From contig NZ_CANMSJ010000003.1 in the NCBI RefSeq assembly GCF_947500605.1, positions 331,816 through 395,815 of the forward strand: a DNA stretch of 64,000 nt, read 5' to 3'. Positions 16,489 through 51,383 of this stretch are shown here, one piece after another; the first letter of the stretch is position 1, and each line of letters starts with the position of its first letter. The notes beneath the pieces were generated by a model, which worked only from the letters and a program-made list of their open reading frames with translations, did no database searches and was not told the origin of the DNA. Source of the stretch: an uncultured Lacinutrix sp. Lineage in GTDB: Bacteria > Bacteroidota > Bacteroidia > Flavobacteriales > Flavobacteriaceae. The translations under genes were made by a program, and so were the position numbers.

Positions 16489-17139
16489 ATGTACGCAATT
16501 GTAGAGATAGCAGGGCATCAATTTAAAGTTGAAAAAGACCAAAAAGTTTTTGTTAACCGTTTAGCATCAGAAGAAGGAGAGACTATGTCTTTCGATAATG
16601 TTCTTTTAATTGCAGATGGTGACAATGTTACTTTAGGCGCCCCAGCTATAGATGGAGCACAAGTAAGTGTGAAAGTCTTAAAGCACCTTCAAGGTGATAA
16701 AGTTATTGTTTTCAAGAAGAAAAGAAGAAAAGGTTACCGTGTTAAAAATGGTCACAGACAAGCCTTAACTGAAATCGTTATTGAGAGCATTGTAGCTTCA
16801 GGAGCTAAGCCAGCAAAAAAGGCTGCTCCAAAAAAAGAAACTAAGAAAGTAGAAGCGAAAGCTGCTGCTCCTAAGGCTTCAAAATCAACAGGAAAAGCTG
16901 ATGATTTAAAGAAAGTTGAAGGTATTGGTCCAAAAATTGCTTCGACATTAGCTGAAGCAGGAATCTCAACTTTTGCTGAATTAGCAAAAACAGATGCGGC
17001 TAAAATTTCTGAAATCATTGCAGGTGTTCGTGGTAACCACGTAACTGATACTTGGCCAGCACAAGCTCAAATGGCTGCTGATGGTAAGTGGGATGAGTTA
17101 AAGAAATGGCAAGACGAATTAGATGGTGGTAAAGCTTAA
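16489..17139 (+). CDS. rplU: 50S ribosomal protein L21 with C-terminal HhH extension
   Basis: MYAIVEIAGHQFKV..KKKRRKGY..GHRQ; Ala/Lys linker then DDLKKVEGIGPKI. Confidence 0.97.
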   Translation: MYAIVEIAGHQFKVEKDQKVFVNRLASEEGETMSFDNVLLIADGDNVTLGAPAIDGAQVSVKVLKHLQGDKVIVFKKKRRKGYRVKNGHRQALTEIVIESIVASGAKPAKKAAPKKETKKVEAKAAAPKASKSTGKADDLKKVEGIGPKIASTLAEAGISTFAELAKTDAAKISEIIAGVRGNHVTDTWPAQAQMAADGKWDELKKWQDELDGGKA

Positions 17140-17965: not shown

Positions 17966-18096
17966 AAAGTTGTTATTTGTTAAGGTGAAGGTAATTATTT
18001 AAAAGCTAAAATAAACAAAGTGCATTTTTGTAAGTGATAATAAAACTAAAAAGGTGGTCTCTAATTTCTCTTAATAAAGACTTAAGATGATTGGCC

Positions 18097-18196
18097 TGCA
18101 ATAGCGATTGATGCGGCATCCTTTTTTGAGGCACGAAAAAAAGATATAGTGGAAAGCGCGGTTGGTTTTGGTTTTTCTGCCAAAAGCAAATTGCCC
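18097..18196. repeat. Dispersed ~100-nt structured element, Flavo-1-like, copy 1
   Basis: tgcaatagcgattgatgcggcatcc-T6..A7-gatatagtggaaagcgcgg-hairpin-gccc; related copies at 26975 and 51273. Confidence 0.7.
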
Positions 18197-19795: not shown

Positions 19796-20422
19796 ATGCC
19801 TCTTTACAAATCCATTAGTGTAAATTCACAAACTACTGTTAAAATCTGGAAGATTGAAGAGTCTTATACAGAGTTAATTACTCCTTTAAATTTAAAAGAA
19901 GAAAGCTTAAACCGTGTAAATGGTATGAAAAGCCAATTGCATCAACGTGGCTTTTTAAGTGTTAGGCATCTTTTACGAGCTTTTGGTTATACAGACCAAG
20001 ATTTATTTTATGATGATAATGGAAAGCCACATTTAAAAGATGGAAAACATATTTCTATAACGCATAGTTTTACGTTTTCGGGTGTTATTGTTGGTGATAA
20101 AGAAGTTGGAATAGATATAGAGAAACAACGTGATAAAATAGCAGTTATAGCAAAGAAATTTGTGGATTATGAGTTTGAATATTTAAGCGAACTAGATACC
20201 GATTATATAAATAGGCTAACTGTTATTTGGGGAATTAAAGAGTCGCTTTACAAATTATTTGCTACTCCAGGTATGTTGTTTAGAGAACACTTTTTGGTGA
20301 TTCCTTTTATGATGGAAGATAGAGAAACGTTGTGTTGGATAGATTATAAGATGAAAAAATACAGGTATAATTCTTACTTCTTAGAGTTTGAAGGTTTTAC
20401 TTGTGCATACGTATTAGGATAA
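19796..20422 (+). CDS. 4'-phosphopantetheinyl transferase (Sfp-like)
   Basis: NGKPHL, ISITHS, VGIDIE, W.IKESLYK. Confidence 0.9.
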   Translation: MPLYKSISVNSQTTVKIWKIEESYTELITPLNLKEESLNRVNGMKSQLHQRGFLSVRHLLRAFGYTDQDLFYDDNGKPHLKDGKHISITHSFTFSGVIVGDKEVGIDIEKQRDKIAVIAKKFVDYEFEYLSELDTDYINRLTVIWGIKESLYKLFATPGMLFREHFLVIPFMMEDRETLCWIDYKMKKYRYNSYFLEFEGFTCAYVLG

Positions 20423-21133
20423 ATGAAGTCTATTTTACAACATCTTAAAACATCGAAAAAACAAAATCTTGCAGTTTTAATAGACCCTGATAAATTTGAT
20501 TTAAAAAATGCATCGCAATTTATAGATAAAGTTAATAGATCTATAGCTACGCACGTGTTTGTTGGAGGAAGTATAGTTGAAAAAGATGTAACCGAAGCAT
20601 TACTTTTAGCAATAAAACCATTAACAAACTTACCAATTGTTTTGTTTCCGGGAGATGTTATTCAAGTTTCAGAAAAAGCTGATGCTATTTTATTTCTGTC
20701 TTTAGTTTCTGGTAGAAATCCTGAGTATTTAATTGGTCAGCAGGTAAAAGCTGTTTCGAAATTGAGAAATAGTAGTCTAGAAATCATCCCGACAGGTTAT
20801 ATTTTAGTTGATGGAAAAAAGGAGACTGCAACTCAAAAAGTGACTAAAACCAAACCTTTAAATAAATTGCAAGAGATTGTAGATACTGCAAAAGCTACTG
20901 AGTTATTAGGAATGCAATTAGTCTATTTAGAGGCTGGAAGTGGTGCAAAACAAGAGGTTAGTAATGCTGTGATTTCAGCTGTTAAATCAGAAATTAATAT
21001 ACCTTTAATAGTTGGTGGAGGAATAAGAAGTAAATTTGTAATAGATAAAGCGTTTAAAGCAGGAGCCAATTTAGTTGTTATTGGTACGGCATTTGAAGAT
21101 GACGAATCGTTTTTTGAAGAGATAAAAAAATAA
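20423..21133 (+). CDS. Geranylgeranylglyceryl/heptaprenylglyceryl phosphate synthase
   Basis: VLIDPDK, FVGGS, LFPG, YLEAGSGA, VGGGIRS, VVIGT. Confidence 0.9.
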   Translation: MKSILQHLKTSKKQNLAVLIDPDKFDLKNASQFIDKVNRSIATHVFVGGSIVEKDVTEALLLAIKPLTNLPIVLFPGDVIQVSEKADAILFLSLVSGRNPEYLIGQQVKAVSKLRNSSLEIIPTGYILVDGKKETATQKVTKTKPLNKLQEIVDTAKATELLGMQLVYLEAGSGAKQEVSNAVISAVKSEINIPLIVGGGIRSKFVIDKAFKAGANLVVIGTAFEDDESFFEEIKK

Positions 21134-21155: not shown

Positions 21156-21416
21156 ATGAATATATCTATAGACTTAACATTATCGCCGTTACAAGACGAT
21201 TACGAAAAACACGTTATAGATTTTATAAAAGTGCTCCGAGATTCGGAGTTTACGGTTTTAGAAAATCCGTTAAGTACTCAAATATATGGTGATTATAATA
21301 GTCTAATGCCTTTTTTAACCCAAGCTATTAAAAACTCTTTCGAGAATCAAGATATTTGTGTGTTAACAATGAAAGTGGTAAAAACAGATAGAAGTGACTA
21401 TGAACCAAATTTTTGA
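21156..21416 (+). CDS. Thiamine-binding protein-like (YkoF/MTH1187-type) small protein
   Basis: ISIDLTLSPL..ENPLSTQIYG pattern; context next to pnuC. Confidence 0.6.
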   Translation: MNISIDLTLSPLQDDYEKHVIDFIKVLRDSEFTVLENPLSTQIYGDYNSLMPFLTQAIKNSFENQDICVLTMKVVKTDRSDYEPNF

Positions 21417-22032
21417 TTTTTTTCTAGATGCTTATAAAAATGCATCAGCCACAGATATTGTATTAGAGATTATTGTCTTTTTTTTTGGTATTGCAAGTGT
21501 AATTTATGCAAAGAGAGAAAATATTCTAGTATATCCAACAGGATTAGTAGCAACTATTATAACTGTTTATCTACTTTATAAAGCTGAGTATTTTGGAGAT
21601 ATGATGATGAATTTTTACTATTCTGTCATGAGTCTTTATGGCTGGTGGAATTGGGCTAGAAAAAACGAAAACGAATATGTTCTTCCTCTTTCTAGAACGA
21701 ATACTCAAGAGAAATTAATAGGTATAGCCTTGTTTTTTATTACAATGTTTGTAACCTATTTAGTTTATAGTGTTTACGATTATAAGTTAGAAATCCCGAA
21801 TTACATAGATATTTTTACTTCCGGTATTTTCTTTACTGCAATGTGGTATATGGCTACCAAGAAATTAGCGAATTGGACTTTATGGATAATTGCCGATTTA
21901 ATAACTATACCACTATACGCTTATAGAGGTTTAGGGATTTTATCATTACAATATTTAATATTTACCATTTTAGCTATACAAGGTTATAAACAATGGAAGA
22001 AAAGTATAGACAACAAGAAGCAAATTGCATAA
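21400..22032 (+). CDS. pnuC: PnuC family vitamin/nucleoside transporter
   Basis: YGWWNW, NWTLWII.D, multi-TM; likely start at 21400. Confidence 0.9.
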   Translation: MNQIFDFFLDAYKNASATDIVLEIIVFFFGIASVIYAKRENILVYPTGLVATIITVYLLYKAEYFGDMMMNFYYSVMSLYGWWNWARKNENEYVLPLSRTNTQEKLIGIALFFITMFVTYLVYSVYDYKLEIPNYIDIFTSGIFFTAMWYMATKKLANWTLWIIADLITIPLYAYRGLGILSLQYLIFTILAIQGYKQWKKSIDNKKQIA

Positions 22033-22598
22033 AAGTTGTGTTGTTTGGCCCAGAATCTACTGGTAAAACAACATTGGCAAAACAATTAGCAGCTTATTAT
22101 AATTCGGTTTGGGTACGCGAATTTGCGCGAGAGTACCTTCAAGAAAAATGGAATAATGAGCGTAAAATTTGTGAGCCAAAAGATTTATTGCCAATTGCTG
22201 AAGGACAAATGCTTTTAGAAAACGAATTAGCAAAAAAAACAGATACTGTTCTTATTTGTGATACCGATTTGTTAGAAACTAAAGTGTATTCCGAAGTCTA
22301 TTATTCTGGAATGTGCAATCCTGAATTAGAAAAATATGCGTTGGAAAACACTTATGATTTGTACTTTTTAACGTATATTGATACGCCTTGGGAAGCCGAT
22401 GATTTAAGAGATAAGCCTGAGGAAAGAGAAGCTATGTTTAAAGTGTTTGAAGCGGCTTTAAAAAAACACAATAGACCTTATGTTTTGCTAAAAGGAGATG
22501 AAAAAACACGTCTTGAAGCAGCAGTAAATCATATAGATAAATTAATAACAAGAAAAAGTGAACTTCACCAAAGCACAAATAAAGCAAATAGAAAATAA
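21993..22598 (+). CDS. NadR-like P-loop kinase (AAA_28 type), kinase domain only
   Basis: GPESTGKTTL, EFAREY, CDTD, PWEADDLR; no HxGH domain. Confidence 0.88.
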   Translation: MEEKYRQQEANCIKVVLFGPESTGKTTLAKQLAAYYNSVWVREFAREYLQEKWNNERKICEPKDLLPIAEGQMLLENELAKKTDTVLICDTDLLETKVYSEVYYSGMCNPELEKYALENTYDLYFLTYIDTPWEADDLRDKPEEREAMFKVFEAALKKHNRPYVLLKGDEKTRLEAAVNHIDKLITRKSELHQSTNKANRK

Positions 22599-24108
22599 AG
22601 GATTAACAGTAGATAAAGTTTTGAAACAAATTGAAACTTTTAAATCGGGATTGCCTTTAATTAATTTAGAATCTGCCGCGATTTTAGGTCATGGAATATT
22701 GAGTGTTTCAAAAGATGAAAATAAAGAGTATTCAGCATTTTACGATAAGCAAAAGGAAGAGTTAGATGTTTTAAAGTTTGTTCCAGCTTCTGGTGCTGCT
22801 ACTAGAATGTTTAAGTTTTTGTTCGAGTTTTTAGATATGTATGACCATGAAAAAGAAACGGTTAATGGTTACATTAACAAACATAAAGCTAACGATTTGT
22901 TAGTGTTTGGTGTAGGTCTTGAAAAATTTCCTTTTTATAATGATGTAATCAAAGAGTCTAAAAAACATGTTCCAAACTTCGACTCATTATCTGCAGATTT
23001 AAAAGTTGTAGAGTTTGTAAAAACCATGTTAAACGAAGATCGTTTAAATTATAGTTTCTCACCAAAAGGATTATTGCCTTTTCATAAATACAAAGATCAT
23101 ATAGCTACTGCTTTCGAAGAGCATTTATTCGAAGCTGCACTGTATGCAACCTCTAATAATATAGCTGCGATTCACTTTACAATATCAGAAATTTACAAAG
23201 ATATTTTTGATGAAGAGTTTAATCGAATTCAAAGCATAGTAGAACAGAAAACGAATACAAAATTTAAGATATCTTATTCTTATCAAAAAGAAGAAACAGA
23301 TACTATTGCCGTGTCAGCAAAAAATGAACCTATAGAAGATGTAGATGGTTCTTTACATTTTAGACCTTCTGGACATGGTGCTTTGTTAGCAAATTTAAAC
23401 GATTTTGATGCCGATATTATATTTATAAAAAACATTGATAATGTTGTTGTTTATAAATATGAAAATGAAGTTGCAAAGCATAAAAAGGTATTAGCAGGAA
23501 TTTTACTTAAAAAACAAAATAAAGCTTTTAAGTATTTAAAAGAGTTAGAAGCAGACAAGGTTTGTGAGGATAAATTAATTGAAATTGCACGTTTTTTAAG
23601 GAAAAAATTGAATGTCATTATTTCTCATGAATTCGAAAAATACTCTCCCAAATATCAAATAGAATATCTGAAAAGTAAACTCAATAGGCCAATTCGAGTT
23701 TGCGGAATGGTTAGAAACGAAGGAGAGCCAGGAGGTGGACCATTTTGGGTTAAAGACGAAAGTGGTACTGTGTCATTACAAATAGTAGAATCAGCACAAG
23801 TAGATAAAAAGAACAAGCATCAAAAAAGTATTTTAAAAAATGCAACGCATTTTAATCCTGTAGATTTAGTTTGTGGTATTAAAAATTATAAAGGCGAAAA
23901 GTTCGATCTCTCAAAATATGTAGATCCAAAAACGGCTTTTATTACAATGAAAACTAAAACAGGAAAAGATATTAAAGCGCTGGAATCTCCAGGACTATGG
24001 AATGGTGGAATGGCAAATTGGAATACCATTTTTGTAGAGACTCCAATAGTAACTTTTAATCCTGTAAAAACTGTTACAGATTTATTAAAGGCAACACATC
24101 AATTATAA
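22558..24108 (+). CDS. DUF4301 family protein
   Basis: KFVPASGAATRMFK, RPSGHGAL, KNIDNV, GEPGGGPFWV, FNPVKTV.DLL; GTG start. Confidence 0.88.
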   Translation: MNFTKAQIKQIENKGLTVDKVLKQIETFKSGLPLINLESAAILGHGILSVSKDENKEYSAFYDKQKEELDVLKFVPASGAATRMFKFLFEFLDMYDHEKETVNGYINKHKANDLLVFGVGLEKFPFYNDVIKESKKHVPNFDSLSADLKVVEFVKTMLNEDRLNYSFSPKGLLPFHKYKDHIATAFEEHLFEAALYATSNNIAAIHFTISEIYKDIFDEEFNRIQSIVEQKTNTKFKISYSYQKEETDTIAVSAKNEPIEDVDGSLHFRPSGHGALLANLNDFDADIIFIKNIDNVVVYKYENEVAKHKKVLAGILLKKQNKAFKYLKELEADKVCEDKLIEIARFLRKKLNVIISHEFEKYSPKYQIEYLKSKLNRPIRVCGMVRNEGEPGGGPFWVKDESGTVSLQIVESAQVDKKNKHQKSILKNATHFNPVDLVCGIKNYKGEKFDLSKYVDPKTAFITMKTKTGKDIKALESPGLWNGGMANWNTIFVETPIVTFNPVKTVTDLLKATHQL

Positions 24109-24515
24109 TGTTTAACGAAGAAGCTCTTGTTAAAGAATTTAATTTTAAAGGTATTAGGAGTTCTGGTGCCGGAGGACAACATGTAAATAAGGTGTCTTCT
24201 AAAATAGAATTAACCTTTAATATTCAAGAGTCTTTAGTTTTAAATGAAAAACAAAAAGAAGTTATAGCATATAAGTTGTCTAATCGAATTACTAAAGATG
24301 GCTTACTAATACTTCAATGTGGAGAAAGCCGAAGTCAACATAGAAATAAAAACATTGCTATAGTAAGAGCTATCCAACTTCTTAAATCTACATTGTTTGT
24401 AAAGAAAAAACGCATTCCAACAAAAATTCCGAAGGCAGTAATTATTAGGAGGCTTAAAAGTAAGCGTGCTAATAAAGAAAGAAAAGCAACCAGACGTAAG
24501 CCTAATTTAGATTAA
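24108..24515 (+). CDS. arfB: Alternative ribosome rescue peptidyl-tRNA hydrolase ArfB
   Basis: RSSGAGGQHVNK, RSQHRNK, basic tail; TAATG overlap with upstream gene. Confidence 0.92.
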   Translation: MFNEEALVKEFNFKGIRSSGAGGQHVNKVSSKIELTFNIQESLVLNEKQKEVIAYKLSNRITKDGLLILQCGESRSQHRNKNIAIVRAIQLLKSTLFVKKKRIPTKIPKAVIIRRLKSKRANKERKATRRKPNLD

Positions 24516-24567
24516 AAAAAGATTAAAACGTAAAACGTAACTCAAAAATCTATCATACCTTTGCGCT

Positions 24568-24655
24568 GTTCTCAAAAAAGGGGTGCCATAAATTAGGCTG
24601 AGATCATACCCATTGAACCTAGAACAGGTAATGCTGTTTAGGAATTTGTAGAAAT
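24568..24655 (+). ncRNA. TPP riboswitch
   Basis: GGGGTGCC..GGCTGAGATCATACCC.TTGAACCT.GAACAGGTAATGCTG..TAGGAA core; TACCTTTG promoter element at 24557-24564. Confidence 0.92.
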
Positions 24656-24797
24656 ACAATTAATATTATTAGTCATCTTATCTAAGAATAAGAAAGTGAA
24701 AAACAGACTATAAAATGTATTGATTGTATTTTGAAAAAAACTAATTATTATAATAGAATAATTACCTCTTTTTATTCGCGATTTAAATGTATTTCGA

Positions 24798-26924
24798 ATG
24801 AAATCTATAGTAAAAACAACAACTTTATTTTTAGCATTTACAGTATTAACTTTAAATGGTTTTGCACAAGAAGTTAAACAAGACTCAACAAAAATTGAAA
24901 CCTTAGATGAGGTTTTGGTTTCTGCGGTTAGAGTAAAAGCAGATGCGCCTGTAACGCATTCTAATTTAACAAAAAAGCAAATTGCAAAACGTAATTTAGG
25001 ACAAGACATTCCTATTCTATTAAATTATTTGCCAAACGTAGTATCATCGTCTGATGCTGGTGCAGGTATTGGTTATACGTATATGAGTGTCCGTGGATCT
25101 GACGCTTCAAGAGTTAATGTCACTATAAACGGAATCCCATATAATGATGCTGAGAGTCAAGGCACTTTTTGGGTAAATATGGGAGATTTTGCTTCGTCTA
25201 CAGAGAGTTTACAATTGCAACGTGGTGTTGGTACATCTACAAATGGTTCTGGTGCTTTTGGTGCTAGTTTAAATATTTTAACAGATGCTGTTTCTAAAGA
25301 GGCTGGAGGCGAAATTTCTAATTCTTTTGGTTCTTACGGTACGAGAAAACATAATGTAAAATTTACTACAGGTAAAGTAAATGAACATTTTGAATTTGCT
25401 GGTCGCTTGTCTAATATTCATTCAGATGGCTATATTGATAGAGCGTCTACCGATTTAAAGTCATATTTTTTACAAGGAAGTTATACTGATGAAAACACCT
25501 TGATTAAAGCTTTAGCTTTTGGAGGGAAAGAGGAAACATACCAAGCTTGGGATGGAATTTCGGCAGAACAATTGGAAGAAAATAGAAGACAAAATCCATT
25601 AACTTACGATAATGAAGTAGACAACTATCAACAAGATCATTACCAATTACATTGGAACGAGAAATTGAACAATAATTGGACAACTAATGTTGGTTTAAAC
25701 TACACTAGAGGTAAAGGTTATTTTGAGCAGTTTAAAGACGATAGAGATGCAGTAGATTATAATAACTTAATAGAAGATGGTAGTGATGTTATTGTACGTC
25801 GTTGGTTAGATAACCATTTCTATGTTGGTAATTTTAATGCTACTTATAGAAAAGATAGATTAGAAATTATTTCAGGAGTGTCTTACAGTGATTACGAAAA
25901 CGACCATTATGGTGAGCTTATTTGGGGAAGTGAATTAGCAGATAATACAAGTATAAGAGATCATTATTACGATGGGAAATCTACTAAAAGCGATTTAAAT
26001 ATTTTTTCTAAAGTATCGTTTGGTCTTACCGAAAAATTAAAAGCTTTTGTAGATATACAAGGTAGATTTGTAAATTATAAAACTAACGGATTAACATCTA
26101 AAAGAGTACCATTAAATGTTGATGAAAAATTTAGTTTCTTTAATCCAAAGTTAGGTCTAACTTATAGGTTAAACAATGAAAATAGTTTCTATACATCGTT
26201 TGCAAGAGCAAATAGAGAACCTAATAGAGACGATTTTAAAGCTGGTGTAAGTACTCATGAAAGCTTAAACGATTATGAGTTAGGATGGCGTTTAACACAA
26301 GAGAATTTTAAGTTAAGTACTAATGTTTATTTTATGGATTATCAAAACCAATTAGTACTTACAGGAGAGATTGATGATACAGGAGATGCTTTACGTGGTA
26401 CTAGTGGTAATAGTTATAGATTAGGTTTAGAGATTGATGCAGATATCCGTTTAAGTAATAATTTTTCTGTAAGACCAAACATTTCTATTAGTAAGAACGA
26501 AAATGTTGATTATGTTACAAATAGAGACGATGCTATACAAGAATTAGGGAACACTAATATTGCAAATTCACCAAATACTGTTGCTGGTAATGCGTTGGTG
26601 TATCATCCATCAGAAAGGTTTCAGGTTGCCTTTTTATCAAAATTTGTAGGAGAACAATATCTAAGTAATACAGATACAGAGGTTTCAAAATTAGACAGTT
26701 ATTTTACTAGCGATTTAAACGTAATGTATGAGTTTAAAATGGAAAGCGTTTTTAAATCTATTGTACTTACTGCTTTAGTAAACAATATTTTTGATAAAGA
26801 ATATGTAGATAGAGGTTATATTTATTTAGATACATGGTCTACGCCTGGAGAAACGCAAGAAATACAAGGATACTATCCACAAGCAACTAGAAACTTTCTT
26901 GTTGGTGCAACACTTAAATTTTAA
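24798..26924 (+). CDS. TonB-dependent receptor, probably thiamine uptake
   Basis: TonB-box-like LDEVLVSA, plug SVRG..VNVTINGIP, C-terminal GATLKF; downstream of the TPP riboswitch. Confidence 0.9.
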   Translation: MKSIVKTTTLFLAFTVLTLNGFAQEVKQDSTKIETLDEVLVSAVRVKADAPVTHSNLTKKQIAKRNLGQDIPILLNYLPNVVSSSDAGAGIGYTYMSVRGSDASRVNVTINGIPYNDAESQGTFWVNMGDFASSTESLQLQRGVGTSTNGSGAFGASLNILTDAVSKEAGGEISNSFGSYGTRKHNVKFTTGKVNEHFEFAGRLSNIHSDGYIDRASTDLKSYFLQGSYTDENTLIKALAFGGKEETYQAWDGISAEQLEENRRQNPLTYDNEVDNYQQDHYQLHWNEKLNNNWTTNVGLNYTRGKGYFEQFKDDRDAVDYNNLIEDGSDVIVRRWLDNHFYVGNFNATYRKDRLEIISGVSYSDYENDHYGELIWGSELADNTSIRDHYYDGKSTKSDLNIFSKVSFGLTEKLKAFVDIQGRFVNYKTNGLTSKRVPLNVDEKFSFFNPKLGLTYRLNNENSFYTSFARANREPNRDDFKAGVSTHESLNDYELGWRLTQENFKLSTNVYFMDYQNQLVLTGEIDDTGDALRGTSGNSYRLGLEIDADIRLSNNFSVRPNISISKNENVDYVTNRDDAIQELGNTNIANSPNTVAGNALVYHPSERFQVAFLSKFVGEQYLSNTDTEVSKLDSYFTSDLNVMYEFKMESVFKSIVLTALVNNIFDKEYVDRGYIYLDTWSTPGETQEIQGYYPQATRNFLVGATLKF

Positions 26925-51131: not shown

Positions 51132-51272
51132 TTAAATGTTTTTAGTACCGCTACAGCGGAAAATCTATTAGTATTTATTACTTTTTAAGTGTAGTAAAAC
51201 TCTAATTTAAAACATAAAAGTACTAAAATAGTATGAAACTGAAACTTTAATTTAATATGATGCTTAGGTAAG

Positions 51273-51383
51273 TGCGTTAAGGATAGAAGTGGTATCCTTT
51301 TTTTTGCTGTCATAAATGGCAAAAAAAGATATAACGTAGAGCCTGACCAAGACAATGCCTTTAGGCAAGTCTTGGTAACGCCC
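51273..51383. repeat. Flavo-1-like element, copy 3
   Basis: tgcgttaaggatagaagtggtatcc-T8..A7-gatataacgtagagcctga-hairpin-aacgccc. Confidence 0.7.

Follow-up and report, generated by a model that had tools for sequence, protein, structure and literature searches.

This study focused on a run of overlapping genes comprising pnuC, a kinase-only homologue of NadR and a member of the DUF4301 family, found in a 64,000-nucleotide stretch of DNA (the window) from an uncultured Lacinutrix sp. (contig NZ_CANMSJ010000003.1, positions 331,816 to 395,815), the host genome of which is 99.98% complete. The run appears to hold two independent functions inherited together in Flavobacteriaceae, and the explanation that we favour, by a modest degree, is a thiamine uptake-and-trap cassette accompanied by an unrelated pyrophosphorylase of the UDP-sugar type. 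The genes, the fold, the invariant residues and the gene distributions were observed, and it is from these that we infer all substrates. An initial annotation had correctly recognised pnuC, a NadR homologue reduced to its kinase domain and an overlapping DUF4301 gene; all three lie on the + strand. It did not include a small Thiamine_BP-like gene upstream, nor a riboswitch and TonB-dependent receptor downstream (24569-26924).

Fold and active site of DUF4301

DUF4301 (22558-24108, + strand, 516 aa, GTG start; PF14134, 715 bits) shares 97% identity with the L. algicola protein, and belongs to a family of about 1,100 clusters at 50% identity (E ≤ 1e-30), for which a search of 8.4 million papers returned one passing mention. 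Four motifs that had been likened to those of UDP-sugar pyrophosphorylases are all present, ASGAATRM at residue 77, PSGHG at 270, KNIDN at 291 and FNPVKTVTDLL at 500, and across 138 diverse homologues their key residues vary little or not at all. An AF2 model based on these homologues (pLDDT 96.2, pTM 0.94) was used for Foldseek searches, and the top 50 matches were all eukaryotic UDP-glucose or UDP-GlcNAc pyrophosphorylases (UGP/UAP; best E 1e-10). In VIA comparisons the model was closest to yeast Ugp1p (Z 23.7, rmsd 3.9, 325 residues aligned) and L. major UGP (Z 23.4), followed by UAP (up to Z 21.8), USP (18.9), GlmU (16.8) and bacterial GalU (15.7), so that eukaryote-type enzymes (Z 21-24) outscored those of prokaryotic type (≤16.8). 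No NMN (nicotinamide mononucleotide) adenylyltransferase of the HxGH type was seen among the fold matches listed. The GT-A/UDPGP fold previously suggested for this protein was confirmed, with the catalytic motifs in place, and judged from the model DUF4301 is almost certainly a nucleotidyltransferase.

At the level of sequence the relationship is distant. When the PDB was searched with DUF4301, by sequence and by profile, nothing significant emerged, and one homologue alone (P0108) gave a weak match to yeast Ugp1p (E 0.25). The profile PF01704 was matched by ten of 61 homologues at E ≤ 0.01 (best 1.5e-6); the window protein gave no match, and that of P0108 (27.7 bits, cut-off 22) covered 106 residues only. 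A bacterial UDP-glucose pyrophosphorylase (UGPase) profile scored all 138 real sequences, with a median of 3.8 bits, against only 71 reported and a median of -2.3 for the reversed sequences. Because of the PF01704 matches, and because real sequences scored higher than reversed ones, the resemblance to UGPases exceeds chance. An hhalign comparison with bacterial UGPases aligned 104 columns of the C-terminal part only (probability 67%). Three short forms of DUF4301 (L118, L119 and L120; 448-469 aa) were noted, two of which are without approximately positions 320-364 of the model; this helical stretch therefore seems to be dispensable.

The active site was compared with ten residues mutated in human UGP1 (PMC5381698). 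By motif mapping, eight of these have identical counterparts in DUF4301 that are at least 99% conserved (G79, K170, G272, H273, N292, D294, N433 and K504), and the phosphate ligands K127, H223, N251, D253 and K396 of the human enzyme correspond to K170, H273, N292, D294 and K504 (99-100% conserved). The uridine ligand Q163 and the glucose ligands E281, N303 and H192 of T. brucei UGP (PMC3270307) map to Q243, E411, N433 and H273, all invariant or nearly so. The C-terminal half of this mapping was taken from printed alignments and the N-terminal half from motif order and spacing, Q243 being placed by its distance to GHG (29 versus 28 residues). The mapping showed no adenine or NMN signature in the active site, and ligands of the uracil and hexose types are kept. 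Conservation of the uracil-, phosphate- and hexose-binding residues suggests UTP and a sugar 1-phosphate as substrates, and on sequence grounds a sugar 1-phosphate is the probable acceptor. The protein would be a diverged nucleotide-sugar pyrophosphorylase of the eukaryotic type, most likely converting UTP and hexose 1-phosphate to UDP-hexose and pyrophosphate.

DUF4301 would work like a UDP-sugar pyrophosphorylase, yet it is not a formal member of the UGPase family. With the eukaryote-type UGPases (UGP2, Ugp1p and LmUGP; PF01704; PDB 2i5k, 2oef and 4r7p) it has in common the fold over 325-340 residues (Z 22-24) and the motifs GHG, NxDN, ExAQ, FN and PVK..DLL in the same order, but identity is only 16-20%. 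Unlike these enzymes, it carries an insertion of about 85 residues between the nucleotide-binding loop and K170, its nucleotide loop reads PASGAATRM rather than KLNGGLG, and FNPVD stands in place of FNTNN. Structural alignments reach only to about residue 400 of the UGPases, and their C-terminal left-handed beta-helix is absent from DUF4301, which terminates 12 residues past K504. The fold is also common to UAP1/AGX1 (Z about 21-22, best Foldseek E 1e-10) and USP (Z 18.9). We take the arginine of the nucleotide-binding loop, PKG and EPxG to be UAP-like features, and GHG and ExAQ to be of the UGP type, for which the UAP versions would presumably be GNG and VEYSE.

A candidate thiamine uptake-and-trap cassette

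The pnuC gene (21400-22032, + strand; PF04973, 165.5 bits) encodes a PnuC/PnuT-like vitamin facilitator of 210 aa and is the sole Pnu gene of the genome. Its product carries the motif W159-x-x-W162-x3-D166 (WxxW(x)3D/N in the family); the Asp/Asn position was considered as a substrate marker and rejected, as it does not separate substrates. pnuC overlaps by 40 nt the gene for the stand-alone NadR-type P-loop kinase (21993-22598, + strand, 201 aa; PF13521 AAA_28, 151.9 bits), which in turn overlaps DUF4301 by 41 nt. Of the 325 positions of the NadR model TIGR01526, the kinase covers 164-320 only, which make up the kinase half (103.8 bits, cut-off 341); the protein has a Walker A motif (GPESTGKT at 19) and a Walker B motif (CDTD at 89) and no H/TxGH motif. 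A second, distant AAA_28 paralogue (host C7:39520-40044; also L152 and L153) is common in Flavobacteriaceae, and its tree position is well removed from that of the kinases linked to pnuC.

Several neighbours are of a thiamine type. Overlapping pnuC on its upstream side is a gene for a small Thiamine_BP/YkoF-like protein (21156-21416, + strand, 86 aa; PF01910, 24.4 bits, E 2.8e-5, just missing the cut-off of 24.9), which usually disappears along with both pnuC and the kinase. Downstream of DUF4301 is a thiamine pyrophosphate (TPP) riboswitch (24569-24661, + strand; RF00059, 50.4 bits, E 6.4e-8, full model; gathering score of 54.3 not reached), with a -7 promoter box of the Bacteroidota type ahead of it at 24556. 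The riboswitch is followed by a gene for a TonB-dependent receptor of 708 aa (24798-26924, + strand; PF00593 and PF07715), an OMthi-like candidate for thiamine uptake that is conserved together, and lost together, with pnuC and the kinase. Default scans miss this riboswitch, as its score is under the Rfam gathering threshold, and similar weak-scoring copies occur 3' of DUF4301 throughout the family. Because it sits downstream of pnuC and the kinase, the riboswitch can act on the receptor only.

The arrangement recalls the OMthi-pnuT-tnr3 thiamine uptake system of Bacteroides (PMC5613172), and also the model for PnuT of facilitated diffusion with trapping by a kinase (PMC5749112). A TonB receptor with a TPP riboswitch, a Pnu facilitator and a trapping enzyme are common to the Bacteroides system and the window, but in the window the latter is a NadR-type kinase, thiamine pyrophosphokinase (TPK, tnr3) is absent, and the riboswitch precedes the receptor only. 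The receptor would bring thiamine into the periplasm under riboswitch control, the Pnu protein would allow it to diffuse into the cell, and the kinase would trap it as thiamine monophosphate (TMP), which ThiL could convert to TPP. The kinase, with ThiL, would then stand in for the TPK of the Bacteroides system. TPK (PF04263) was not found in the host genome, and ThiL is present.

The argument that the kinase acts on thiamine, which we regard as reasonably likely, comes from gene distribution. Among 141 genomes sampled across the class (77 with the kinase, 22 with DUF4301 and 27 with TPK), kinase and TPK occurred together in three, against 14.7 expected, and all three were of one genus (g2), taken as Flavobacterium from its fused gene; the Fisher P value of 5e-7 is overstated, as the genomes are related. 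The near-exclusion holds over about a dozen TPK-bearing families and also inside one family (f3). In a panel of 45 genomes, all 11 TPK genomes outside that genus lacked the kinase, and the three genomes that had neither kinase nor TPK also lacked pnuC. Two TPK-positive genomes have lost the kinase and retained pnuC. Furthermore, in two other families the kinase lies directly before a TPP riboswitch and a receptor of the same type, with no DUF4301 (L126, L146 and L147). Nothing relevant came from searches of the literature for a thiamine kinase of the NadR type.

Some findings speak against a thiamine cassette. In TPK-positive Flavobacterium the kinase that is fused to DUF4301 is intact and unrelaxed, which the present explanation cannot account for; the idea that this fused kinase is decaying in the presence of TPK was rejected on these grounds. 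The riboswitch does not control pnuC and the kinase in the window, the host has thiamine biosynthesis genes, the nearest solved relatives of the kinase are the ribosylnicotinamide kinase (RNK) domains of NadR (E 5e-27), and the window PnuC did not join TPK-adjacent PnuT in a tree that was without resolution in that part.

A different substrate would be nicotinamide riboside (NR), which PnuC and the kinase might salvage as NMN for use by PncC, NadD and NadE, with DUF4301 as an unrelated sugar-nucleotide enzyme. The window resembles the NadR and PnuC salvage systems of E. coli, H. influenzae (1lw7) and L. lactis (PMC7221760) in that a Pnu gene stands beside an RNK-homologous kinase; CinA/PncC and NadD are encoded by the host, the transporter is called PnuC in databases, and the kinase remains intact in TPK-positive Flavobacterium. 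Unlike NadR, however, the window kinase has neither an HxGH NMN adenylyltransferase domain nor a helix-turn-helix, the context is of a thiamine type, and the transporter lies outside the NR clade: E. coli PnuC groups with the Pnu proteins found beside full HxGH-NadR (support 100/98), apart from the window clade. One genome (G110) carries a full NadR as well as the kinase-only gene. NR salvage also leaves unexplained the near-exclusion of TPK, the recurrent riboswitch and receptor neighbours, and the loss of the cassette together with the receptor, and we consider it rather unlikely.

DUF4301 and vitamin salvage

The initial annotation had proposed that DUF4301 could supply a missing nucleotidyl transfer on the imported, phosphorylated nucleoside. 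The nucleotidyltransferase fold was borne out, and the genes are tightly coupled in the window and fused in Flavobacterium. The missing transfer step on a vitamin was not supported by genomic distribution, by the active site or by the host pathways. CinA/PncC, NadD, NadC and ThiL were all found in the host, and because PncC, NadD and ThiL are present no transferase step is missing for either NMN or TMP. Within the 141-genome sample, DUF4301 is absent from 60 of the 77 kinase-positive genomes; 17 genomes have both genes, which are adjacent in only four, all Flavobacteriaceae, and unlinked in the other 13. At least nine genomes without DUF4301 have pnuC adjoining the kinase-only gene, including a member of Flavobacteriaceae (G054) with the order pcrB-pnuC-kinase-arfB. 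Conversely, eight of 25 DUF4301-positive genomes lack both pnuC and the kinase, B. thetaiotaomicron, used as a control, has DUF4301 and no kinase, and three loci (L019, L025 and L028) have kept DUF4301 after pnuC, kinase and receptor have all gone. A fourth locus (L014) was rejected as a case of kinase loss, as the kinase sits elsewhere in that genome. DUF4301 is very probably independent of the vitamin.

Set against two separate functions are the position of the kinase directly upstream of DUF4301 in 52 of 58 loci of the Flavobacteriaceae type, and a co-occurrence slightly above chance (17 genomes, 12 expected; the related genomes are not independent). The role proposed for DUF4301 also has to contend with its presence in only 26 of 161 Bacteroidota genomes, being absent from most, and with the missing sugar-loop lysine of UGP (K-G-G), in place of which is G392, within EPGGGP.

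The close linkage might suggest that DUF4301 does transfer a nucleotide to a phosphorylated vitamin (NMN to NAD, or TMP or TPP to a thiamine nucleotide), thereby taking over from the HxGH domain that was lost. The gene overlaps, the in-frame kinase-DUF4301 fusions (11 Flavobacterium loci, and also other proteins) and the unrelaxed state of the fused kinase are in its favour, and the GT-A fold accepts non-sugar phosphates in IspD, LicC and CobY, which were among the fold matches. This is, however, highly improbable given the many genomes in which either gene occurs alone or the two are unlinked, the conserved uracil and hexose ligands, the host enzymes that already complete both pathways, and the other fusion partners of DUF4301. 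DUF4301 has four unrelated fusion partners, and besides the kinase it is joined to PurM, a ManA-like cupin and REC-SpoIIE (PP2C); because of the PurM and REC-SpoIIE fusions, fusion to the kinase is weak evidence for a shared pathway. A complex prediction for DUF4301 and the kinase scored 0.00 and was not used as evidence either way.

The fusion records (P0391-P0405; L172-L176) comprise those with a ManA-like cupin, those with REC-SpoIIE phosphatase and, from a mouse-gut metagenome contig, those with PurM. The name "NAD metabolism ATPase/kinase" is found on stand-alone DUF4301 proteins (P0013, an Atlas cluster), and was probably transferred from the kinase-DUF4301 fusion.

Gene contexts elsewhere were also examined. 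In one case the ManA-like cupin-DUF4301 fusion adjoins glycosyltransferases, NDP-sugar epimerase genes are near DUF4301 in some loci, and in Nitrospirales/Nitrospirota (L072 and L078-L080) DUF4301 is followed by a gene for inorganic pyrophosphatase and by an acetyl-CoA-synthetase-like gene, the latter identified by eye. The ManA-like, epimerase and pyrophosphatase contexts fit, to a modest extent, an enzyme of sugar phosphates that releases pyrophosphate. Outside Flavobacteriaceae, recurrent neighbours of DUF4301 include STAS, Hpt, REC-SpoIIE, GT2 and epimerase genes (L073, L104, L111, L113 and L114).

The REC-SpoIIE fusions, together with recurrent STAS, Hpt and response-regulator neighbours and a patchy distribution, raise the question of whether DUF4301 senses a ligand or serves as an enzyme of signalling, and not of bulk metabolism. 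All catalytic positions are invariant, though, and in these genomes signalling genes are often found as neighbours; this role appears very doubtful.

Finally, DUF4301 could share a lipid pathway with the PcrB/GGGP synthase encoded upstream in the same run (20423-21133, + strand, identified by profile searches), for which it would activate a phosphate other than that of a hexose, such as glycerol phosphate or a polyol phosphate. DUF4301 does remain beside pcrB where the vitamin cassette has gone from the locus (L014, L019, L025 and L028), and its sugar loop is altered. On the other hand, six loci have DUF4301 without pcrB (L027, L030, L031, L032, L047 and L065), another has pcrB and no DUF4301 (L123), and outside Flavobacteriaceae pcrB is not a neighbour of DUF4301, leaving a lipid role improbable. 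PcrB/GGGP synthase is an ether-lipid enzyme of archaeal type, found here in a marine flavobacterium and within the pnuC-kinase-DUF4301 run.

UDP-glucose synthesis in Bacteroidota

GalU was above the cut-off in none of 45 Bacteroidota genomes, and true PF01704 enzymes occurred in about one of 301 genomes. The PF00483 enzymes of the host are RmlA, GlgC, ManC-like and RmlA-long-like, and among its PF00483 matches no canonical GalU or GlmU exceeded the cut-off. The placement of DUF4301 is relevant to the question of how Bacteroidota, in the absence of GalU, produce UDP-glucose. The protein is present in B. thetaiotaomicron and most Flavobacteriaceae, and could be a source of UDP-glucose for some lineages, but is too patchy to be the general answer; as a universal substitute for GalU it was rejected, GalU being missing from DUF4301-negative genomes as well and DUF4301 occurring in 26 of 161. 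The RmlA-long-like nucleotidyltransferase (L084:1195-2211, host contig C2) is a candidate for the GalU and GlmU steps. Two Bacteroidota genomes have open frames (L163 and L168; about 1,116 aa) in which a stretch of about 125 residues weakly matches PF01704.

The DUF4301 family is large and unstudied, and its placement in the fold of the UDP-sugar pyrophosphorylases opens a direct route to an assay. If the kinase is a thiamine kinase, it would fill a gap in thiamine salvage in aquatic Bacteroidota and correct an annotation of NR salvage. Neither chemistry is new in kind. That both proposals hold, with the kinase an undescribed thiamine kinase replacing TPK in roughly half of the genomes sampled from this class and DUF4301 a separate bacterial branch of the eukaryote-type pyrophosphorylases supplying a UDP-sugar, is a tentative view to which we give slightly less than an even chance.

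Other features of the window

The upstream part of the gene run also includes a 4'-phosphopantetheinyl transferase gene (acpS-like; 19796-20422, + strand), found by profile searches. At the downstream end, the gene for the ribosome-rescue factor ArfB (24108-24515, + strand; NF006718, 119 bits, above cut-off) overlaps DUF4301 by 1 nt, and is an unrelated passenger of the run. Sigma-70 and terminator scans were at chance level. An RNA contig covering 18967-24635 was rejected as a transcript, as it crosses the divergent ahcY region and may be DNA. Two Flavo-1 RNA matches were above the gathering score (18089-18167 and 51262-51352). A probable ribosomal protein L21 of 216 aa (16489-17139), recognised by eye beside an L27-like gene, contains an extended linker rich in Ala and Lys and an additional domain at the C-terminus.

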